64,000 bases of DNA from Dictyostelium discoideum (Eukaryota). The translations under genes and the position numbers were made by a program. Positions 5,559-32,021 of the stretch are shown one piece after another. The notes under the pieces are model-generated. The model did no database searches. It saw nothing but the letters and a program-made list of their open reading frames with translations, and was not told where the DNA came from. The stretch covers positions 7,328,001-7,392,000 of the forward strand of contig CM000151.3 of NCBI GenBank assembly GCA_000004695.1. Direction: 5' to 3'. Within the stretch, counting starts at the first letter, position 1. Each line of letters begins with the position of its first letter.

Positions 5559-8500
5559 ATGCAATACGTTAATGGTAATGATATTTCAAGTCAAAGTATT
5601 CATGAAGTTTTAGAACTTGCATTTTCAACAAAAATCCCATGGACAAAATTAGAATATGAATCAAGTGAAAAACATATAATACATTCCTATTCATCACATG
5701 AAAGAGGTATTTATTTAAGTAAAGGTGTTGCAGAATTTAATATTTCACCAGAAAATATGTATGAACTTTTATTGGATATTTCTTCAAGATCAAAAGTAAT
5801 TATTATTATTATTATTATTTAAATTTTTAATTAATTTTTTTTTTATTTTTTTTTTATTTATTTATTTATTTAAATAAATAAAAGAAAAAAAAAAAAATTA
5901 TTAATTACTAATTATTTTTTAAAATTTTAAAAAAAGTGGGATTTTCATTGTAGAGAAGCACATATTATTGAAGAATATGATCATTTAAATCATATTATTC
6001 ATTTAAATTTTACAAATCCATTAATTAGTAATTTGGATATGAATTTATATAGAAGTTGTAAGTATGATCCACAAGAGAGATTATTTGTAATTGCTATGAG
6101 ATCAATTGAATTGGAGGATGGTGATGTTGATCAATTTGAATGTTTACCAAATGGATGGGTAATTCAAGGTTTAAGAGGACAAAAAGATAAATGTAAGATG
6201 ACATTCGTTCAACAATGTGATCTAAGAGATATAGAACTTCAACGTATTCCAGGTTATAAATCATTCAATAGTAAAGAGAGACTTGAGGATTTTCAATTTC
6301 TTACATTGTTTCCTGCCACTGTAAGTGGTAGACTTGCAAAGATTTTCGAATCTATAGAACTATACATATCAAACAATGTGAAGGATATTGAAACCAAGGA
6401 TATTCGTATCTCAATTATGGAAAAAGCAGAAAAGGAGGTAAATGAAATGTTTGGTACAACCAATCCAGACTATGGTTGGAAAATTTATTTAAAGAAATTG
6501 GATATGGAAATTCTAATTAAAAAGACAACCTCTGGTTACTATATGATTGGTAAGGGTAGTTTTTCTTCGAGGTATTCACCAGAGTTATTGGCTGATGTAC
6601 TCTATCAGAAGAATCCTTTCGAATGGGATACTTTTTATGATAAAACTAAATTGGTTGAAAGTATCAATAGTTCAATCAGAGAGGTCGAGGTTCATTATAG
6701 AATGTGGAGAAATACAATCACCATGAGATTGCTACAATCCGTTAAAAAAGGACCTGGTAATTTCTCATCGGTACATTGGAGAAGTATTTGTTCTCCAAAT
6801 TATCAAGTGGCTGATGGTATCGAAGTACATTATCTTCCTACTGCACTCTTAAACTATGGTTTAGGTGATGGTAGTTTCACAAGTTTCTTGGCGGCAATCG
6901 AGGTTAAAGGTTATCCAACTCCTTGGGAGGAAGAGATGGTAACTAAAATGTTTGCTGCTAGAATCATTTCAAATCAAAATAGTATCATAAATCATGTAAA
7001 TAAATTAACAGGTGGTTCAGAGATGATAAGAGAATTACCTGTTATTCCTTCAGTTCAACATCATTGTGGTGATGTTGGTTCTCATATTGGTACTCCTCAA
7101 GTCTATAATGCAATGGTCGAAAATTTTGCTGATATACTTTTAGATGAAGGTAATAAAGATGGAAATGTAGTTTCTTCAAAAAATAAAAGAAAAAGAAATA
7201 AAAATAATGAAAATAAAAATAATAATAATGATAATATAATTGATGAAGAAATTGAACAAGAGGAGGAAAATATTGAAAAAGATCAACAACAAACCCAACA
7301 ACAACAAACTCAAAAACAACAACAACAACAACAACAACAACAAAAAACACAACAACAACCACAACAGCAACAACAACAACCACAAGAACAACAACAAAAT
7401 CACTCACAACTAAAAAAAGAAATCAAACCTACAAGACCAAGTATTCGTTTTACCTATTTATTAAGTAACAGTAGTAGTGGACAACGTCCAATTGCTTGGT
7501 ATGAATCAAAAAAACAACCATTCTTATTTTTGGTTAGTGATAGTAGTGAGAGAAAAGGAAAGATTCAAAGAAAGACTTATTATTTCTCAAATTCAGGTTT
7601 TGATAATTTACCAGAGGAAGTGGTTCAAATTATATTTTCCAATTTATCGGCAATCAATATTGTCAACTTATCATTAGTTTGTAAAAGATTTAAAATGGCA
7701 ACTGATAGTCCAATTCTTTGGAAAAATCTTTATAAAAGTAATCCATTATTTCATAAAAAGACACCAAAAAGAAAACAAATCATTCATTCAAATCTAAGTA
7801 ATGATGAAAATAAAGTAAATTCAAATTCTGGTGATTCTGCTGATGGTTCATCAAGCCAAGAAGAAGAAGAACAACAACAACAAAATCAACAACAAAATCA
7901 ACAACAAAATCAACAACAACAACAACAACAAACATTTGACCTTTCAAATATTAATTTAAATGATCCAATATCATTATTAATGGTATTTACAAATGGAATA
8001 ATTCCTCAAAATTTATCACCAACTGAAATAATAAATGTTGGTGGAATAGTGTCTCAAATTGATTTGAATGATCTTTCAAACGTTGAAACTCTTATTCAAC
8101 AATTACCTCATCAAGTTTTATCATTGATTCAAATGAATACACTTGATGCAAAGATTCAACATTTATCAATGATTAGTGGAATGCCAGCAACCATTGGTCA
8201 AGAATCACCAATCAATAAAAACTCTTCAGATAATCCAAAACCAAATGCATACAATAAAAGAGATAACAACTCTTATATTCCTGATGAAGAGTTTATTAAT
8301 TGGAAATCACATTACACTGAAAAACATAAGCAATCAAAGAGATGGGTTAATATGGAACCAATTCGTATCACCCCTCTAAAGGGTCACAATAGGGCAATCA
8401 AAGCTGTAAAGAGTGAGGGTAATTCAGCTATCACCGTATCAACAGAGAAAAAAATCAAATTTTGGAATTTAAACACTGGTCAATGTATTGGAGACTACGA

Positions 8501-9443
8501 AGGTGAATCAGGTGTTCTCTCTGTAGAGTATGATCACACTCAAAAGTCATCTTGTATTTGGCCATTGTCAGATTATACCAAAGTCCACATTGGCCATAAG
8601 AATGGTACCGTCACTATGGTTGATTTCATTGAACAACCAATTGAAGTTATTCATACATCAAGACCAACCAATTTGGCTGATGGTTTCGATTTCACCTTTC
8701 CTGGTAAATATTTGATTTGGGAACACACAATCATTCACTATTGGGATGTTGAAACAAGTACACTCTTGTGGAATGAACTAAATGCTCACACAAAGAAAAT
8801 CACTCAATCAAAGATTGTCGCACAACATGAACTTTCTAATAAAGGTATCGTATTCACAACTAGCTCTGATAAATCTGCAAAAGTTTGGGATTTAACAAAT
8901 GGTACTTGTATAAATACTTTGGTTGGCCATTCATATGCCGTCAATTGTATTGAACCAATTGGTGACTATATGGCTTTGACAGGTTCCACTGATAAAACTC
9001 TTAAACTTTGGGATCTTAGACAAGCCTCAACATTTATATCTAGTTACTCTACTAAACACACTGGTCCAATTAGATGTATTTCCTATCAAGAAAAGAATGG
9101 TATTGTTTTAAGTGGTAGTGATGATGGTTCAATCATTGCATTTAACTTGGATAATTGGAATCTTTCAAATATCTCTGTTGTTAAAAAACCAATCTTTAAT
9201 AATGTTATTGGTAATATTGGTACAACAACAACAACAACTACTACTACCACTACAACTACAACTACTACTACTTCAACTACAAATAATACTAATGTACCAG
9301 AGATTCCAAAGATTAATTTAGGTACTTTTAAGGATTCCAAAAGACTTCATAATCATGAATCTGCTGTAACTTGCATTGAATCTGATGAAGCTGGTTTTAT
9401 TAGTGGATCACAAAATGGATTGGTTTTGAGATGGGACTTTTAA
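5559..9443 (+). CDS. START (StAR-related lipid-transfer) domain + F-box + C-terminal WD40-repeat protein, ~1216 aa with polyQ/polyT inserts
   Basis: Exons 5559..5795 and 5937..9443. Donor AAA|gtaatt at 5796; the 141-nt AT intron ends ..aaaaag; exon 2 starts TGG GAT in the same frame, giving the junction ..SSRSK|WDFHCREAHIIEEYDHL. START-like N-terminal region (GVAEFNISPENMYELLLD.., ..RLFVIAMRSIELEDGD.., ..KMTFVQQCDLRDI..). F-box motif LPEEVVQIIFSNLSAINIVNLSLVCKRFKMATDSPILWKNLY. WD repeats include GHNRAIKAV..KIKFWNLNTG, GHSYAVNCIEP..TDKTLKLWDLR and LSGSDDGSIIAFNL. Confidence 0.75.
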
Positions 9444-9817
9444 GTTAGGTTTCCAATTTTATTACAATCATCAAAATAAATTAAACAACAAAAAAAAAAA
9501 TAAAAAAATAAAAATAATTTATTTATGTATTTTTTGTCAAAGATTTATATTATTTATATAAAATTTGTTTTATTTTTTATTTTTTTTTTAGTTTTTTAGT
9601 TTTTGATTTAATTTTAAATTAACCAATTCGATAGATTTAAAAAAAAAGAGATAAAAAATAAAAAAAAATCGATTTATTTTTATAAAAATAAAGTTTGGAT
9701 TGAATTGATTTCTACTTTTATCATTATTATTATTATTATTATTATTATTTATTATTAATTTATTATTATTTATTATTATTTGTTATTTATTATTATTTAT
9801 TTATTATTTCTTATTTA

Positions 9818-10487
9818 CTAATTAATACCCCAAACCTCAACAACATAAGGTTTGAAATCATTTTCCTTTGAGAGTACTGTATTATTAAAAGTTTCGGAAG
9901 GACCTGAATAACCGTGAAGGAATTCATTATCCATCCATAATCCAAACATTGAACCACCACCAATTGAAATATAATCGTGACTTGCATAAATGAACATGTC
10001 ATTCTCTTTTGTCCATCGGAAGATATCGAAATCTGGATATATTTTGAATAAGAAAGTTTCACCACTACCAAAGAATACATCTTTTCTAGGTTCAACACGG
10101 TCAGATAAAAATGCACCAAAAATGTATCCATTCTCATCTTGAATCAAAAGAATGGATTGTTCAACTGTTTTGATTCTTTTATAAAAAGTGATGAAAGAAA
10201 CACCGTCGTTGGTGGTGTTGAAGAGTAATTCAATATCTGAGCCTTGAGTACGAATTGGAAGATAATGACGAAGTTTTTTATAGATTTCTGGTGTCATTAA
10301 TATTTTCTCTTGGAATTGATATTTAGTTTGATCTTGTAATAATTTTGGTGTTGTTGAGAAAGTCTCATCAAAAGAGGAGGCTAATGAATCACTAGATACA
10401 AGGGATCTAATATTATTATGACTACCATTTCTCCAATGATTAATTGAAATGGGTGCTGTTGGTTTTATACCTGTTGTAGTAACAGTG

Positions 10488-10519
<32 letters not shown>

Positions 10520-11324
10520 GGTAGTATTATTATTATTATTATTAATCGATAATGGTGCAATAACTGTTTGTTGACTATTGAAAGAACCTGTTAAATTTGG
10601 ACTTGAGGTTTGAGGTGAAAATTTACTATCAACAATCAATTGTTTTAAATAAGAGAAACAAGTATGAACACTTGTAGGATCACTACCTCTGAAGAATAAA
10701 GTTTGAATAGAGTTATCTTTATGAATGATTGCATAAATACAAGGAAAGATTAAAACCTTTTTATTTGCTCCAGTGATTTCATCTGTAACTGTCATTTCTT
10801 CTTCCTCTTCCATTAAATTTAATTTTGAAATTTCTTTTTGAATAAAAGCATCATGTTCCTCTTCTTCTTTTTTACTTTTAACCTTTGATTTTACTTTACT
10901 ATTATTATCATTGCCAATGCCACCAACTGAGCTACCATTTATACCTTTGTTAATTTTATCTTTAATATAACGTTGTTCTTTATACCAATCTTTTGAAAAA
11001 TGAGCTAACCATTCCGATTTATCGAATAAATATTTACAACTAATAATATGTGAATATTCAGCATGTAATTGAACAGATTTACCTATTAAACCTGGTTCCA
11101 TTATTGATTGAAAGATTAATTGATATGGTGTAAGTGTAAGATGACCAACCACTTTTTGATTTCTCATAAAACAAACTAATTTTTCTTTAACTATACTTTC
11201 TTTACTAATTCTTTCAAATCTACTTGTTGCTGAGAATGGTATATGAATTGGTGGTTTATTATTTGTAATTGGATTATTACTTATACTATTACCACTATTA
11301 TTATTACTATTATTATTATTATTG

Positions 11325-11355
<31 letters not shown>

Positions 11356-11369
11356 TACTATTATTATTA

Positions 11370-11404
<35 letters not shown>

Positions 11405-12631
11405 GTTGTTATTATTATTACCATCATCAAATGCCATTTTAATTTCTTCTTTTGATGGTTTAAATAAATCATTTACATTTAAGGATGAACCACCTGATAA
11501 AGCTCTTCCTCTATTATTACTATTATTAGTAGGTGATAAACATTCGATACCACCACTACCATTAATACTACTACTACTAACACTACTACTACTATTATTA
11601 ATATCTAATGAATCAATTGAATCAGCAGATGTTGTAATAAGGGATGGTGGTTGTTCAATAATTTGTTCCTCATTTAAATTTAGATTCTTTTTCTTATAAA
11701 CCCATAATTGTGTACCAGGTTTAAGTAATTTTTCAGAATGTAATAATCTATTAGCTTGAATTAAAACATCTCTTGGCATTGAGAATTGAAGTGAAATACC
11801 AGTAAGTGTATCTTTTTCTTTTACAGTATAAAGTTGATAAATATAATTATTATTTGAAATATTTGGGGGTTCTGCAAATTTACAACCTATTGAACCTGAT
11901 CTCGTTCTATTACCGCCACTTGGTGTAAATCCACCACTATTATTATTATTATTATTATTATAATTACTATTATTTCCATTTAATAAAATATCAATTGATG
12001 GTGAAACTAAATTTGTTGAAGCACTTTGAGATCTTAATCTCTCATTGTTGTTATTATTACTAGCACCAATCATTGGTGATAAAGATGGACTATTTATTGG
12101 AGGTACAGCAGATGATAATGAAATTGGTGATAATGGTGTACCACCACTAAGTGGATGAGTTGTAACAGGTGTACCACTAGTTCCTTCATGATAAGGTGAA
12201 TTTAAATTGATTTTCTTTGGTTGATTATTTACATTCTTTGGTATTCTCTTTTGAATGGTTGGTGAATCTAATAGATTGGTGATCTCTGGGAAATGAGATT
12301 TATTTGATTTATAAAATGATGAAATCAATGCCAACAAGTGATAAAGATACGGTTTTTTTTTATCCTTTAATTGACTTGCTAATTTATCCAATTTCTTCTT
12401 TAATTTAACTTTAAAATCTGTAATTGCCATTGTTGAATCACTAAAAACAATATCAAATGATGGTGCTGCTGATGGATATAAAAATGGGAATAAAATGATC
12501 ACTACAAATTTTCTATTATCAACATTTGCAATACAAACTCTATCTGCTAATGATAATTTTTCAAATGTAACATATTCAAATTTCTCTGTAATTATATTAC
12601 CAAGTTCTTGATGTAAATCTAATGGTTTATG

Positions 12632-12713
<82 letters not shown>

Positions 12714-14251
12714 GTTATAAATGGTGATTTTTTATTTAAATTTGAAATATCTTCTTCATCTGTACTTTCCTCTAATTCATTTGATAACATTTTATTCATT
12801 AAATCTTGTGATTCTTGAGAAATTCTAATATTAGTTGGTAATACTAATTTTGGAGGACCATCTTCCTTTGTAAAGATATCAATCATTTCATTTGTAATTC
12901 TCCACATATTGAATTGATTATCTTTACCAATTGATGTTACATAATGTTGTTTTTCACCACCTGCTACTTCAGTTGTTCTCCAATCAAAATTTAATATAGT
13001 ATCTTTATGTCCACCTGATAATGAAAGTATTGGATGCTCTGAACATTTTGCATTCCTAAATTGAATATCATTATATGATCCCTTTGATGAAATTGAACCA
13101 ATAATATCATTATTAACAAATGGCTAAAAAAAAAAAAATAATAAATAAATAAATATTAAATTAATACTTTTATTATTATTTCCAATTGATCAATGATATT
13201 TTTAAAAATAACAAGGTGTATATATAAATATACATACAAGGAATCTAGCGATATTACAAGTTGAATCTATATTATATCTATGTAATAAATTACTTGGAGG
13301 TGTTACATCCCAAACTTTTACACATTTTTCAGTTGGGCCACATGTTAATAGTTGATTTCTTTCCTTTGGACTCCATTCAATATTTGAAATTGAACCTATA
13401 TGTGCTGAAACACATGATAATGGTGATCCAAATTTCTATAAAAAAAAAAAAAAAAAATAAAAAAAAAAAAAAATGTTATTAATAAGTGTTGTTATAAAAA
13501 TATTAGAGTTTTTATTAATAATAATAATAATTACTCTTATATCCCAAATATTAAATTCACTAGCATTTGAAGTTGCTAGCATTGTACTTGAATTTGGATT
13601 CCAAGCGATTTGAGATAAATTTGATCTTGCTTTAAAGTTTGTACTAATTCCACCACTACCTTGAGTACGTTCTCTAATATCGAAAATATTTGCCATACAA
13701 TCAGAGCTTGCACTAGCGATTAAATTGGTCTCTTGTGTATTCCATGAGAGTGATGTAATATGTCTAATATGTGATTTAGAGAATTTAACAATCAATTTCT
13801 CATCTCTAACATTCCAAAGATAAATTGAATAATCCTTTAATGATGATGATACTAATAAATGTGATTCAGATTTATTTGTACTCCATTTTAATAAATCACA
13901 TTCAATCTCTTTAGAATTTGATTTTAATTTCTTAAAAATACATGGTGTTGTTGTTGGTGATGATGTTGTGGTTGTTGTCGATGATGATGATGATGAATGA
14001 TGTGATGATAAAAAACCTTTACTAATATTATTACTACTACTACTTGCTTCATCTATAATACTGATTTTATCATCTTGTGTATCCTTTGGTAAATTCAATA
14101 TGAATAAACTTCTCTCACTTGAGATTGCAACATGTTCACCTGTTAAATCAACTGCCAATGATGAGAATTTATATTTATTCTTTTTATCTAAACATGTTGA
14201 TACAATTGGTTGGAATGAATTTTGTTTAAACTGATTTGTACCATCCATCAT
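9818..14251 (-). CDS. WD40-repeat N-terminus fused to LysM + GRAM-like + C-terminal TLDc domain (OXR1/NCOA7-like oxidation-resistance family), ~1400 aa
   Basis: Exons (minus) are 14251..13535, 13435..13238 and 13123..9818. Exon 1 ends ..NIWDIR|gtaatt; its intron ends ..ttttatag. Exon 2 is KFGSPLSCVSAHIGSISNIEWSPKE..CVKVWDV..IARFL|gtatgt; the second intron ends ..tttttttttag. Exon 3 (PFVNNDIIGS..SLSGGHKDTILNFDW..) runs in frame into the 1029-aa ORF. LysM-like segment YTVKEKDTLTGISLQFSMPRDVLIQANRL..KPGTQLWVY. GRAM-like segment KLVCFMRNQKVVGHLTLTPYQLIFQS. TLDc region YLPIRTQGSDIELLFNTTNDGVSFITFYKRI..LLIQDENGYIFGAFLS..GSGETFLFKIYP..IYASHDYISIGGG..GLWMDNEFLHGYSGPSETFNN. Stop at 9820-9818. Confidence 0.7.
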
Positions 14252-14421
14252 TAATATTAAATTTTATTTTTGATTTTTTTTTTTTTTTTATTTATTTTTT
14301 GATTTTTTTATTTTTTAACGAGAATTGAAATGAATAATTATTATTATTATTAAAAATTATTATTATTATTATTATTATTATAAATTATAAATCCATTAAG
14401 TAATAATTATTATTGGTTCTG

Positions 14422-14499
<78 letters not shown>

Positions 14500-15074
14500 A
14501 AAAAAAAAAAAAAAAAAAATTTAAAAAAAAAATAAAAAAAAAAAAAAAAAAAAATCATATTGTTGGTTAACCCTAATTACCAAATCTAAACAAGAAAAAA
14601 ACAACTTGTCAATTAGTTTTTTTTATATATTTTTTTTTTTATTAATCTTTTCCAGTTTTATTTGTTTGATATTATTATTATTTAATTATTTTTTTTTACA
14701 ATTTTTTTTTTTTTTTTTTTCAAACTCCGATACTATAATTTCATTTTCAAGGTATTATTTTTTTTATTTATTATTATTTTATAATTTTTTATTATTTTTA
14801 ATTATTATTATTTTTATTAATAATTTTAAAATTTTATTATTAAAAATTATCTTTTAAAAATAATATTCATTGCTCATTTTCAATAAAAAATGATTTCCGA
14901 AAAAACGAAATACACCTAAAATTTCCTTAAGATATTTTTTATTTTTTTTTTCCAAAAAAAAATAAAATTTTTAAGATATTTTTTAAAAAATAAAAATTGA
15001 GATGTCTTTTTTTTAAAAAAAAAGGAATTTCCTAAAATTATTTATTTTGTGTTGATTACTAATTTTTTTTTTTT

Positions 15075-15107
<33 letters not shown>

Positions 15108-15112
15108 TATTA

Positions 15113-17014
15113 TTAAGAATTTGAATGATTTTTACCTGATAAAACTCTGTCTAAATTAAAAGCAGCACTAATTAAACTTAAATGAGTGAAAGCTTGTGGA
15201 AAATTACCTAAAGCTTCACCACCAATACCAATTTCTTCAGAGAATAAACCCAAATGATTTGCATAACCTAACATTTCATCAAATATTAAACGAGCTTTAA
15301 CTAGATATTCTTTATTGACAACGGAAGCTCTTGTTAAACTTTCGATTAACCAAAATGTACAAATATTGAAAGTACCTTCTTCACCATCCAAACCATCGGT
15401 TGCAATATGATCATCATGACCATGGGTTAGATTATAACGAAATACCAAAGAGTTTGCAACTAGACCTCCTTCTTCCACTGGTTTGAGTATTGCTTCTAAT
15501 GTTGCTAAATTTCTTGGGTCTGATGGAGCCATAAAGAAAACCAACGACATTATCAATGTTGAAGCATCCAATGCTTTACTACCATAGAATTGAGTAATCT
15601 TTGTCCATTTATCACGTGGGGCTGGGAATGATCTACGATCTGCCAAACGCAATCCTCTATCCAATGCCACCCAACACATTATCTTGGAGTAGGTGAAATG
15701 TTGTTTACCACTTCTAACTTCCCAAATACCTTCATCCTTGGTTTGATAATTATCAGCCACCCAATCGACCATCTTCCTAATATGTAACCAAAAATCGTAG
15801 GAAACCAACGACCCATACTTATTGGAGAGATAAATCGAATCCATAAACTCGCCGAAAATGTCCATTTGAACTTGATTGATTGCATCATTACCAACTCTAA
15901 CCGGCTTGCTATCTCTATAGCCTGAAAGATGGTCCAATGTGTATTCGGGGATTTTATCATCGCCATGAATGCTATACATGACACGCACGGGCATGCTTCT
16001 TTTTGGGTCGTCATAAACTGCTTCGGCACATCTTGTTTCCAACCATTTCATAAATGCATGTGCTTCTTCAATGAAGCCAATTCTAATCAAACCATAGACA
16101 GAGAAACTTGAATCTCTCAACCAAGCGTATCTGTAATCCCAATTTCTAGGCCCACCCAATCCCTCTGGTAGCGAACAAGTTGGCGAGGCAATGATTGCAC
16201 CCGTTGGAGCGAATGTCATAAGCTTCAAACATAGTGCACTACGTTCCACGATTTCCCTCCATCTTCCCTTGTAAGTGCATTTCTCCAACCATTTTTGCCA
16301 GTAGAATATGGTGCCCATGAATAATTCATTCTCCAATTTGCCAATATCCTCTGGAACACGATAGAGATGCTTTGGAAACAAGTCTACACTATCAAACGAT
16401 TCCTTTAGTATGAACACCACCACATCATTCTCTTTGACAGTGAAGACCGATTCTAGGAACCCCCCATTTCCATCATTGATAAGTGTCATTGGAATCTTTG
16501 ATATTAAATCTAAATTGATCTTTGTAGGCTCAGATTGAATATTGTAACCAAATTCTGTTTTCTCCATTTTATGTTTATCTAATGCGAAATTGAATGTTGG
16601 TTTGAATATCATTTTCATATCTAATTTGCCTCTGATTCCTTTAACTTTTCTAACTAACCATTTCGAGCCTTTTCCATCTACAACTGGCATATAATCAATC
16701 ACTGATGCTACCGATTCAACTAAATGAAATCTACTCTGAAGTACATTTGTATCTGGCCAATAGCTTTGCTTGGTTTTGGTTTGTTTACACTTCGATCTCA
16801 ATGTTTCTGGTGCAATACGCCAATGTCCACCCTTTTCACAATCTAACAATGAGCAAAACATAGCTGGTGAATCAAAATGCGGCCAACACATAAAATTAAT
16901 ATCAGCATGAATTGATATCAATGCACTTGTTAACATATTTCCAATAACTCCATGATTTTCAATTAATGGATAAGATTCACAAACTCCATCAATTTCAATT
17001 TCATTACTTGCCAT
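15113..17014 (-). CDS. glycoside hydrolase family 15 (glucoamylase/trehalase-like, bacterial/archaeal type) protein, 633 aa, intronless
   Basis: Single ORF from ATG at 17014 to TAA at 15113. GH15 signatures: N-terminal beta-sandwich region (ENHGVIGNMLTSALISIHADINFMCWPHFDSPAMFCSLLD..GGHWRIAP) and catalytic (alpha/alpha)6 motifs (YRYAWLRDSSFSVYGL, NQVQMDIFGEF, EGIWEVRSGKQHFTYSKIMCWVALDRG, CTFWLIESL). GC content and third-position GC are clearly above neighbouring genes, and the ORF has no polyN/polyQ tracts or introns. Confidence 0.8.
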   Translation of the reverse strand: MASNEIEIDGVCESYPLIENHGVIGNMLTSALISIHADINFMCWPHFDSPAMFCSLLDCEKGGHWRIAPETLRSKCKQTKTKQSYWPDTNVLQSRFHLVESVASVIDYMPVVDGKGSKWLVRKVKGIRGKLDMKMIFKPTFNFALDKHKMEKTEFGYNIQSEPTKINLDLISKIPMTLINDGNGGFLESVFTVKENDVVVFILKESFDSVDLFPKHLYRVPEDIGKLENELFMGTIFYWQKWLEKCTYKGRWREIVERSALCLKLMTFAPTGAIIASPTCSLPEGLGGPRNWDYRYAWLRDSSFSVYGLIRIGFIEEAHAFMKWLETRCAEAVYDDPKRSMPVRVMYSIHGDDKIPEYTLDHLSGYRDSKPVRVGNDAINQVQMDIFGEFMDSIYLSNKYGSLVSYDFWLHIRKMVDWVADNYQTKDEGIWEVRSGKQHFTYSKIMCWVALDRGLRLADRRSFPAPRDKWTKITQFYGSKALDASTLIMSLVFFMAPSDPRNLATLEAILKPVEEGGLVANSLVFRYNLTHGHDDHIATDGLDGEEGTFNICTFWLIESLTRASVVNKEYLVKARLIFDEMLGYANHLGLFSEEIGIGGEALGNFPQAFTHLSLISAAFNLDRVLSGKNHSNS

Positions 17015-17119
17015 TTTAAATTTTTAAAAAAATAATTTATTTATTTATTAATTAATAATTGGGTAATAATTGGTTAATTAATTTTTAATAATAATAATAA
17101 TTTTTTTTTTTTAATTTTT

Positions 17120-17150
<31 letters not shown>

Positions 17151-17770
17151 GGAAATCCCTTTTAATGGAAAAAAAAAAAAAAAAAAAAAAAGGAATTAAT
17201 GTTATTTATATGTAAATAAAGTAGTAATACAATATTATAATAAAAAAAAAATATGTAATATTAATATTAATTAAGTAAATAATAAAAAAAAAAAAAAATA
17301 ATAATGTTAATATTTTTTTATTTTTTTATTTATTTATTTTTTTTATTTATTTATTTAATTAATTTATTTATTTGTTAATCTGCCATACACATTAAAAATT
17401 TAATTGAAATAATATTTTTAATAAAAAATAATACACTACAACTTTTTTTATTTTTTTATTTGTTTTTTTTTTTTTTGAATTGGTTTATTATTTTATTTGT
17501 ATACATTGTGGTAAATTTAACATTCCAAAAATTATGGTGTGAAGTGCAGTTTGGGTGTTCATTTACAAAAAAATAATTTTAAATTTTTTTTTTTTTTTTT
17601 TTTATTGAAATAATGCCCCCCTGTATATATATATGTATGATTTATAGATTTTATTTTATTTTTTAAAAGTTCAGTGAGTTGCGAATATAATATTTTTAAT
17701 ATATTAAAAAAAAAAAAATTTTATTTATTTTTGTATGACTAATTTCAGAAACTGTTTTTTAAATTATTTT

Positions 17771-17811
<41 letters not shown>

Positions 17812-18119
17812 AAAAATAAAAAAAAAAAAGAATTTAAGCGCTAAAAATTTTATTTTCTTTTTTTTTTTTTTTTTATTTATTTTGGAAACATAAAAAATCG
17901 ATACAGCTTGTTTTCTTTATTTATTTAATAAACATTTAAATAAGAATTTCACACGCGCCCTATGATTGAAATAACGAAAATAAAAGAGTCAAAAACTAAA
18001 ACAATAAATAAATAAACAATAACCAAATAAAACTCAACATTAAACTTTTTTTTTTATTTTTTTTTATTTAATTTTATAATTGTATAATAAAAAATAATAA
18101 TAATAAAAACAATAATAAA

Positions 18120-20205
<2,086 letters not shown>

Positions 20206-20546
20206 TACTTTTAATTGGGTATTAATTTCCATTTTTTTTTTCAAATTATTTTTTGTTTCTTTTTCTTTTTCTTTTTTTTTTTTCAATTTATTTTTTTTTA
20301 ATAAAATGTACAACAAATCATATTTATTAATATTAATTTATTTATTAAAATTTGAATTTTTTTTTTTTTTTTTTTTTTTTTCTTTGTTTTTTAAATCTAA
20401 GTTTTTTTTTCTTATAATTTTTATTTTTGTTTTTTATATTTTATTTAAAAGAAAAAATATTTTTTTTTTTTCCTAATTTTTTCAATTTTTTTTTTTCACT
20501 TTACATTTTTTTTTTTTTTAATAACCACCAACCCAAATTAAATTTA

Positions 20547-24301
<3,755 letters not shown>

Positions 24302-24417
24302 AATAAATAATTAATTAATTAATTAATTAATTAAATAATAATAATAATAATAACTCTTTTTAAATAAATTAATAAAACTCTATTGTTAAATATCTAAATG
24401 AATTTATTTTTATTAAA

Positions 24418-24550
<133 letters not shown>

Positions 24551-24563
24551 AAAATTTTGTTTT

Positions 24564-24737
24564 TTAATAATTTGAATAAGATTGTTGGCTTTGGTTAACT
24601 TGATAACTATCATTTAAATTTAATATTGGTTCAATATCTTTTTGATTAGGGCTTTTATTGTTATCGATTTTATTATTATTAATTATTGATTGATTATTAT
24701 TATTATTATCACTATTGTTATTATTATTATTATTAAA

Positions 24738-24831
<94 letters not shown>

Positions 24832-25960
24832 TCAGATTTATACATTGGTGAATATTTATTTCCTGAATTATTATTTTCTATATTAAAATGAATTTCTTCA
24901 ATATCACCAATTGGATGACCATGATGTTTTGGTATTATTATTCTAAAACAAAATAAGGTTGCAAAGAAGGAAGCAACGGAACCGGTCAATAATGAATAAA
25001 CCACATTTCCTTTTGATAAATCTAAAATTAAACCAATACCTAAAGATACTACCATTTGTGGAACTACAACGAATATATTTAATGTACCAATATTGAGACC
25101 ACTACTTTCATTATCTTCAACACCCATACCTACAATTGAAAATGGTAAAATCATAACAATAGCCCATGGAATACCAGTTGATGCAATTAATAGTAATGAA
25201 CCAATTTTCGATTCAACAAAATAAAACAATGCAAAGAAAATACATTGTAAAAGATTACCACCAATATAAATGTATTTCATATCTATGAACTTCACTAAAA
25301 ACGGTATTAACAATGAAACTGCAATCGTTATTCCACTACTAATCGTTAATGATAATGAACCCCAACGAACACCATCTTGAAATAATATCCTTGAATCTGA
25401 ATACTCGGGTGCATTTGGATCACCACCGAAAACATTTACGCCAACCCAAGTTGTAATGAAAAGTACAAACGAAAACCACCCAATCCATGAAAAGAATTGA
25501 ACGGCACATAATCTTTGTAAATATGTGGGCATTTTAACAATACCCTTAAACATTGTCTTTAATGGGTTTTCAACTGATTGATCTTCATTTACCCTAATAT
25601 ATTGTTCCTCTGTTACAAACCCTAATGTCATCACTACACAAAATAATAATACCATAATTGATAGTGTAAATAATGCTCTCGTATCTGTCTTCATAAATGG
25701 AACCATTCTAACCAAATCAATTGAACCCATCATATATCCTAATAAATTACCAGTACCCAACATCAATGAAAATAATGAACTACCTAAACTTTGTTGAGAT
25801 GGTGCTGCAATATCAACTAATAATGCTCTACATGGTGCTTGAACTGCATTATTTGATAAATCTAATATCCAAAATCCAACAATCTAAAAAAAAAATATAT
25901 TAATAAATAATAAAATATAAATTTATTATTATTTATTTATTTATATATTTATTTATATAT

Positions 25961-29713: not shown

Positions 29714-32021
<2,308 letters not shown>

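Follow-up and report, generated by a model that had tools for sequence, protein, structure and literature searches.

The 64,000-nucleotide stretch of Dictyostelium discoideum DNA analysed here (the window; GenBank assembly GCA_000004695.1, contig CM000151.3, positions 7,328,001 to 7,392,000 of the forward strand) contains, on its reverse strand, the gene DDB_G0277045, which encodes a protein of glycoside hydrolase family 15 (GH15) and had been singled out in a first-pass annotation, made from the sequence alone, as a candidate for horizontal gene transfer (HGT) from a prokaryote. It is likely that DDB_G0277045 is a long-resident amoebozoan gene that has been inherited vertically since before the origin of Dictyostelia, that its high GC content at third codon positions (GC3) is maintained locally, and that the allele carried by strain AX4 is damaged. 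In the sequence of events that we propose, the last common ancestor of Dictyostelia would already have carried the gene, and so, probably, would the ancestor shared with Protosporangiida and Protosteliida, with vertical inheritance thereafter; an ancient transfer from bacteria is the most likely candidate for its ultimate source, and the AX4 lineage would then have taken on a recent 60-bp in-frame deletion, probably giving an unstable or inactive enzyme. The bacterial ancestry of the gene is at most very ancient, and as an HGT candidate the gene is ordinary.

The open reading frame (ORF) of DDB_G0277045 runs uninterrupted from ATG to TAA without introns, and its 633-residue product is identical to XP_642884.1 (Q550P8), annotated as 'hypothetical protein' in D. 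discoideum AX4. The longest homopolymer in the protein is three residues, in agreement with the earlier description of an intronless gene free of polyN and polyQ tracts. The catalytic domain is recognised by Pfam Glyco_hydro_15 (PF00723; E=1.1e-62; 212.8 bits against a cut-off of 22), with the best stretch at residues 253–563 and with the motif WLRDSSFSVYGL at residues 298–309 (window 16088–16123), and TREH_N (PF19291) matches at 7e-17 ahead of the barrel. The AlphaFold model of the full-length, 653-residue form of the protein (described below) has a predicted template-modelling score (pTM) of 0.79 and consists of a beta-sandwich and an (alpha/alpha)6 barrel, residues 21–205 being all-beta; the best folds in the PDB are the bacterial glucoamylase 1lf6 and then the glucodextranase 1ug9, which also matches (template-modelling scores, 0.62–0.66). 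A PF19291 beta-sandwich followed by the barrel is the two-domain arrangement of bacterial and archaeal GH15 enzymes, and the protein, judged from its sequence, is of the prokaryotic two-domain GH15 type, as had been proposed from its motifs; the fold matches, the best-scoring NCBIfam models, and the bacterial identity of the nearest non-amoebozoan relatives all point the same way.

Among the NCBIfam models, full-length alignments were obtained with TreH1 (NF041084; 333.9 bits against a cut-off of 820) and TreH2 (NF041085; 269.6 against 1000), and the archaeal oligosaccharide amylase (glucoamylase-type) model scored only 27 bits. Glu432 is invariant in 25–26 diverse homologues and aligns, in a profile match, with the first Glu of the LWEE motif of the fungal glucoamylase 2vn4, which we take to be the GH15 general acid. 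The column of Glu593 (FSEE) is likewise invariant, and this residue is predicted to be the general base. The enzyme, with the N-terminal beta-sandwich packed against the barrel, would thus be expected to hydrolyse its substrate with inversion through this pair of glutamates, the substrate being most likely trehalose or another short alpha-glucoside. By eye, the N-terminus has no resemblance to a signal peptide, which suggests a cytosolic protein, and the overall prediction is that of a cytosolic, bacterial-type alpha-glucoside hydrolase. Several points weigh against this assignment. The TreH1 and TreH2 scores lie far under the equivalog cut-offs, placing DDB_G0277045 outside both equivalogs and therefore in a different subfamily; a single-sequence search of the PDB gave no match, and a search with the family profile gave marginal matches only (E 0.2–0.8), to fungal glucoamylases and the Kribbella isomaltose glucohydrolase; and no trehalose or glycogen genes were found near two bacterial homologues, those of Nitrospira neomarina and Stigmatella. 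Near the homologue in each of these two bacteria lies a gene for a zinc-type alcohol dehydrogenase (L013 2174–3313 and L014 4829–5932, respectively), directly upstream in Stigmatella, which may be a coincidence.

The closest characterised relatives are the GH15 trehalases (TreH1 and TreH2 of Thermoplasma and Sulfolobus, and MSMEG_4535/Rv2402 of mycobacteria), which resemble DDB_G0277045 in the TREH_N domain and barrel and in a length of about 600 residues, and whose catalytic Glu positions are conserved in it. The Thermoanaerobacterium glucoamylase 1lf6 and the Arthrobacter glucodextranase 1ug9 have the same beta-sandwich and (alpha/alpha)6 barrel but only about 14% identity to DDB_G0277045, below detection in PDB sequence searches. 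The fungal TreH-like GH15 proteins (the SPAC4H3.03c family; Basidiomycota) are eukaryotic, carry the same Pfam pair, have about 50–54% identity over the conserved columns, and are likewise uncharacterised; they differ in forming a separate clade, in having long inserts between the two domains, and in not grouping with Amoebozoa in neighbour-joining (NJ) trees, the last being model-dependent. The classical fungal glucoamylases (Aspergillus niger GA, 1agm, and Hypocrea 2vn4) have the GH15 barrel and the WE(E) acid motif in common with DDB_G0277045 but lack TREH_N, are secreted and starch-binding, and show marginal similarity to the family profile (E about 0.2–0.4). The literature searched contained no characterised member of the subfamily of Nitrospira, amoebozoan, and fungal GH15 proteins and no mention of DDB_G0277045, and papers on GH15, HGT, and Dictyostelium together had no bearing on this gene. 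Whereas GH15 trehalases are described in reviews as bacterial and archaeal only (PMC10969515), dictyostelid and other evosean amoebae conserve a TreH-like GH15 protein of bacterial type, and fungi have a counterpart of it.

Orthologues of DDB_G0277045, at 60–93% identity, were found in all dictyostelid lineages sampled. Over aligned positions, identity is 95–96% in D. citrinum, D. firmibasis, and D. dimigraforme, 77% in D. purpureum, 67% in Polysphondylium violaceum, 63% in Heterostelium album, and 60% in Cavenderia fasciculata; further orthologues are present in Tieghemostelium, Synstelium, and Acytostelium. The gene neighbourhood is kept as well: in D. citrinum, D. purpureum, and P. violaceum, a DP-like gene stands head-to-head with the GH15 gene and is followed by the gene for the E1 ubiquitin-activating enzyme, and a major facilitator superfamily (MFS) transporter gene stands tail-to-tail with it in D. 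purpureum, P. violaceum, and C. fasciculata, and slightly farther off in H. album. The GH15 gene has no introns in the group-4 species and P. violaceum. In H. album, tblastn and an explicit two-intron search defined two introns with GT-AG boundaries, 76 and 60 nt long, and in C. fasciculata there is an apparent intron (at least one) after residue 50, its position being approximate. The public C. fasciculata gene model DFA_05515 (L006 8001–12017) is a misfusion, with an off-family N-terminus and a C-terminus that corresponds to an Sm/LSM protein; according to tblastn, the true first exon lies at about 8732–8881 and the intron at about 8882–8954, and the main exon starts at 8955. The D. purpureum model DICPUDRAFT_33519 (536 residues) begins at an internal Met; the frame (L003, about 7680–9611) is open upstream and supplies the 107 N-terminal residues that the model lacks, for a total of 643 residues without introns.

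Homologues are also present in other Amoebozoa. Those of the protosporangiids Clastostelium and Ceratiomyxa contain long inserts of low complexity, a feature that speaks against contamination by bacteria, and a further homologue occurs in Protostelium. The best non-amoebozoan matches are proteins of Nitrospirota, Acidobacteriota, Planctomycetota, and Myxococcota (52–54% identity; up to 741 bits); the nearest neighbours of the amoebozoan sequences, at 52–59% identity, come from the same four phyla and from cyanobacteria, and the fungal-type representatives score about 520–590 bits. The insert-bearing clade to which the latter belong is at least partly fungal: one of its members comes from Cutaneotrichosporon, and the relatives of that protein span Basidiomycota. 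NJ trees were built from 173–182 sequences over 545 columns with 200 bootstraps, under Kimura or gamma distances only. Dictyostelia were monophyletic in all 200 replicates, and Amoebozoa, including Ceratiomyxa, Clastostelium, Protostelium, and three environmental sequences, were recovered in 143. Vertical inheritance within Amoebozoa is well supported, and the conserved synteny, the introns, the other amoebozoan homologues, and the fungal clade together indicate that any transfer was ancient. The first-pass annotation had set a grouping with eukaryotic sequences, together with a GC3 within the range of neighbouring genes, against the transfer that it proposed; the outcome is split, since the protein groups with eukaryotic (amoebozoan) sequences and the GC3 yet lies outside the neighbours' range. 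The 2005 Dictyostelium genome paper is said to contain a list of candidates for bacterial-to-Dictyostelium HGT. DDB_G0277045 is like those candidates in being a bacterial-type enzyme with few eukaryotic relatives in a bacteria-feeding phagotroph; unlike them, it also occurs elsewhere in Evosea, with a sister family in fungi, and would therefore be far older than a dictyostelid-specific acquisition. Two insert-bearing homologues inside the amoebozoan clade (P0254 and P0257) have the acid motif WEVR changed to WGMG and WSPM, and one of the two also has an altered NWDYRY motif; from their sequences they may be inactive paralogues in a eukaryote.

The ultimate origin of the gene may lie in one or two ancient bacterial transfers or in an ancestral gene of Amorphea. 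A bacterial source is put in question by the deep part of the trees: Amoebozoa joined the Nitrospira-type bacteria to the exclusion of the fungal-type clade in only 58 of 200 NJ replicates, a four-cluster test flipped from Amoebozoa with bacteria (197/200, Kimura distances) to Amoebozoa with the fungal type (114/200, gamma 0.7), and in trees of distances only the deep branching would be weakly placed. The nesting among prokaryotes for which a phylogeny had been proposed takes the form of a sister position to Nitrospira-type bacteria at that bootstrap frequency, and because the outcome of the four-cluster test varies with the model of distances, a bacterial donor is a candidate only. Two separate readings are offered tentatively: that a Nitrospira-type GH15 gene entered eukaryotes more than once, in an early evosean and in Fungi, and that the AX4 laboratory lineage is a natural loss-of-function mutant. 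If the former is true, eukaryotes possess an uncharacterised, cytosolic, trehalase-like enzyme whose presence is absent from the trehalase reviews; if the latter is true, wild isolates carry an intact gene that AX4 and its relatives do not.

It is rather unlikely that no bacterium-to-amoeba transfer took place and that a TreH-like GH15 gene, at least as old as Amorphea, descended vertically in Fungi and Amoebozoa and was lost elsewhere, with bacteria looking closest through slow evolution or through bacterial acquisition from eukaryotes. Such a history is favoured by the large, Basidiomycota-wide fungal clade, which includes a match named after Schizosaccharomyces pombe SPAC4H3.03c, by unnamed insert-bearing representatives that cluster with the fungal-type clade, by the gamma-distance outcome of the four-cluster test, and by the combination of short bacterial and long eukaryotic branches, which makes long-branch artefacts plausible. 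However, NJ joined Amoebozoa with the fungal-type clade without bacteria in only 1–8 of 200 replicates, the Kimura distances gave the opposite four-cluster outcome, and the bacterial matches exceed the fungal-type ones by about 150 bits. Moreover, no other eukaryotic supergroup appeared among the top matches, absence there not having been searched systematically, and the family, with 19,105 members at E<=1e-3 in a 50%-identity representative library, most of them presumed to be prokaryotic, appears overwhelmingly prokaryotic.

The base composition of the gene is in marked contrast to that of its surroundings. The GC content of the ORF is 0.370, compared with 0.126 in each flanking kilobase and 0.218 in the whole window, and its GC3 of 0.305 is the highest among 27 ORFs (z=4.1); the 26 others, comprising those of at least 150 residues, have a mean GC3 of 0.130 (sd, 0.042; range, 0.05 to 0.251), and regression on the GC content of the first and second codon positions predicts only 0.147 for this gene. 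Sliding GC3 is 0.12 in codons 1–50, 0.38–0.50 in codons 151–450, and 0.10–0.16 in the last 125 codons. The codon table shows, within this hump and relative to the window background, frequencies of 0.32 versus 0.02 for TCG, 0.35 versus 0.06 for GTG, 0.32 versus 0.05 for GGC, 0.21 versus 0.02 for GGG, and 0.20 versus 0.03 for CCC. The high GC content, the G/C-ending codons of the central part (TCG, GGC, CCC, and GTG), and the grading toward AT-rich usage at both ends, all remarked on in the first-pass annotation, are thereby borne out quantitatively.

This pattern is neither confined to D. discoideum nor to the GH15 gene. The orthologues exceed or reach the upper values of their own neighbours in GC3 (D. 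citrinum, 0.26 versus 0.13–0.20; D. purpureum, 0.26 versus 0.16–0.26; P. violaceum, 0.42 versus 0.27–0.38) and have the hump in a weaker form, with low 3' ends in every species; central GC3 is higher in D. discoideum than in D. citrinum or D. purpureum. Within the window, a typically eukaryotic gene, that for a GH47 alpha-mannosidase (30123–32021, forward strand), reaches an equal 100-codon GC3 peak of 0.47, so that such a peak is not unique to the GH15 gene. Its GC3 is 0.42–0.48 in codons 151–250, with G and C at third positions both raised, and falls to 0.08–0.14 at the 5' end and 0.02–0.06 in the poly-N tail. An F-box/WD gene (6039–9443) has weaker humps of 0.30–0.34. High GC3 is probably a locally maintained feature, common to the orthologues and to at least one ordinary nearby gene, that encoding the GH47 enzyme.

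Translational selection in a highly expressed gene, acting through optimal C-ending codons, is an improbable cause of the high GC3. Sharp and Devine (1989, cited in PMC8321536) reportedly found that highly expressed D. discoideum genes are richer in C-ending codons; TTC, TAC, GAC, ATC, and AAG are indeed raised in the gene centre, and the raised GC3 is conserved in the orthologues. The strongest enrichments, however, concern codons that are rare in the genome, both G- and C-ending, and are G-ending or otherwise non-preferred (TCG, GTG, GGC, GGG, TTG, and AGC), while AAC and CAC are absent from the centre (0/9 and 0/6, respectively), a pattern that is not the classical optimal-codon one. In addition, the hump is limited to part of the gene, the nearby E1 ubiquitin-activating enzyme gene has a GC3 of only 0.095, and the adaptive preferred codons of D. 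discoideum are reported not to be GC-rich (PMC8321536). Synonymous constraint on the hump was considered as well and rejected, since between species identical codons are less frequent in the centre than at the ends.

The compositional anomaly is real but not donor-derived. Between D. discoideum and P. violaceum, codons are identical at 0.44 of the conserved residues, against a chance expectation of 0.41 (saturated), and between D. discoideum and D. purpureum at 0.57, against 0.49 (nearly saturated); evolution in the gene centre is no slower than at the ends. With such saturation of synonymous sites between dictyostelid groups, any signature of a donor must have been erased. When the synonymous differences between two D. 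discoideum lineages in window 7400–25100 were polarised with D. citrinum as the outgroup, 21 changes in the GH15 gene were from AT to GC and four from GC to AT, an excess which indicates that GC3 is held at its level or rising, and so runs counter to a decay toward AT. It is therefore most implausible that the D. discoideum lineage acquired the gene from a prokaryote of higher GC content and that the gene retains a donor-like centre between ameliorated ends: a GC3 above the 0.05–0.25 of the neighbours and dropping toward both ends, the enriched rare G/C-ending codons, the bacterial-type enzyme with its bacterial nearest outgroup, and the lack of introns in the D. discoideum gene would suit such a transfer, but the saturation, the 21:4 ratio, the higher central GC3 in D. 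discoideum than in its relatives, the same pattern in the GH47 gene, the synteny kept in all dictyostelid lineages sampled, the introns in two of them (H. album and C. fasciculata), and the homologues in other Evosea all contradict it. Of the earlier proposal of an old, partly ameliorated transfer, the bacterial type of the enzyme and the great age of any transfer stand, and the composition as a relic of the donor does not.

The account of a locally maintained GC3 has a difficulty of its own. The AT-to-GC excess is also seen in the neighbouring genes (52 versus 17) and may partly reflect polarisation error. The mid-gene humps and AT-to-GC-biased substitution might represent a fixation bias that acts locally, although GC-biased gene conversion is reported to be lacking in this genome. 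The region-wide AT-to-GC bias, whether real non-equilibrium or a polarisation artefact, is hard to square with that report and with the AT bias of mutation that has been published. A GC3 outlier in an AT-rich eukaryotic genome is by itself no evidence of recent foreign origin, and here the age of the gene, its synteny, its introns, and the direction of substitution speak against one; a useful outcome, beside the probably crippling deletion in the reference strain, is the demonstration of mid-gene GC3 humps in unrelated genes of the D. discoideum genome.

The AX4 protein lacks, relative to the full-length homologues, the 20 residues RDTIYEEIQE(N/K)GFNKDLQTF between I473 and T474. At the DNA level, this corresponds to a 60-bp in-frame deletion with a 3-bp microhomology (TTA) at the junction (window 15595–15598). 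The same deletion is present in the independently assembled ACTFIT isolate (GCA_054883475.1), which differs from AX4 by 32 mismatches and nine gaps over 7.9 kb. In four Logan read-set assemblies, the coding sequence is identical to the allele of GCA_054883475.1 except that the 60 bp are retained; these contigs are 2 kb long and end where the genome has A/T-rich sequence of low complexity. The gene is full length in the more divergent isolates of D. discoideum, which have a 653-residue allele, and in all sister species. The deletion is polymorphic within D. discoideum and appears to be recent and naturally segregating. In the better-aligned coding sequence across the whole 18-kb region compared, AX4 is about 2–3% different from two assemblies that bear the name D. 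discoideum (GCA_054859385.1 and GCA_054859355.1). This is far above the usual within-species diversity, so that these assemblies may represent a divergent lineage.

The deleted segment is kept in about 179 full-length homologues of the 182-sequence alignment, only truncated sequences being without it, and includes R474 and D475, both invariant in a 25-sequence alignment. In the full-length model, the helix of residues 467–484 has a predicted local distance difference test score (pLDDT) of about 90, and the deletion removes its C-terminal 11 residues (two thirds) together with the next beta-hairpin strand. In the AX4 model, the helix shrinks to residues 467–475 and the local pLDDT falls to 50–58; the 12-helix (alpha/alpha)6 barrel is intact in the 653-residue alleles and not in that of AX4. 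Because conserved helix residues are lost and no full-length homologue is without the segment, the deletion probably cripples the enzyme, with the modelled AX4 product probably destabilised or inactive. It should be weighed against this that AlphaFold does not measure stability, and loss of function is what the model would imply rather than what it records.

There is very little likelihood that the missing 60 bp reflect an error of sequencing or assembly in the AX4 reference and not a real allele. AX4 differs from all other AX4-like alleles by three nucleotides in the first six codons (nucleotides 4, 16, and 17 of the coding sequence; window 16998–17011), all non-synonymous (MASNEI versus MSSNEY), which are private mutations or old sequencing errors; errors of the latter kind would lend such an artefact some credit. 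However, GCA_054883475.1 is an independent, long-contig assembly that has exactly the same deletion despite its other differences from AX4, and a 3-bp junction microhomology is typical of a real deletion. With the AX4 allele taken as real and damaged, studies of DDB_G0277045 by knock-out or biochemistry in strains derived from AX4 may address an already defective gene, and the 653-residue allele of wild isolates would be preferable. If the damage is true, the deletion makes available a natural allelic series that bears on what the enzyme does in trehalose or glycogen turnover during spore formation and germination.

Features of the GH15 gene and its upstream neighbour in the window (strand: -, reverse; +, forward;., not applicable)
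Feature	Position	Strand	Basis
Complete intronless coding sequence of DDB_G0277045, GH15 family, 633 residues	15113..17014	-	ORF list, exact sequence match, Pfam
N-terminal beta-sandwich TREH_N, residues 15–199	16418..16972	-	PF19291, AlphaFold model, architecture as in 1lf6 and 1ug9
(alpha/alpha)6-barrel catalytic domain, residues 253 to about 625	15140..16258	-	PF00723, barrel helices in models
Codon of Glu432 (GIWEVR), predicted general acid	15719..15721	-	Invariance, alignment with 2vn4 motif
Codon of Glu593 (LFSEEIG), predicted general base	15236..15238	-	Invariant column; role by position
Central GC3 hump, codons about 175–450, GC3 0.38–0.50	15665..16492	-	Sliding GC3, codon table, weaker hump in orthologues
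Junction of the 60-bp in-frame deletion, AX4-type allele	15595..15598	-	DNA and protein alignments
Divergent intergenic region, AT-rich (about 13% GC), common to the GH15 and DP genes	17015..18119	.	Composition
DP transcription-factor gene, two ORF segments (context only)	18120..20205	+	Pfam

The head-to-head arrangement with a DP transcription-factor gene, named in the first-pass annotation, is confirmed by Pfam: the ORF at 19411–20205 matches DP at 1e-31 and E2F_TDP at 5e-11, and beyond the DP gene in the window lies the gene for the E1 ubiquitin-activating enzyme.

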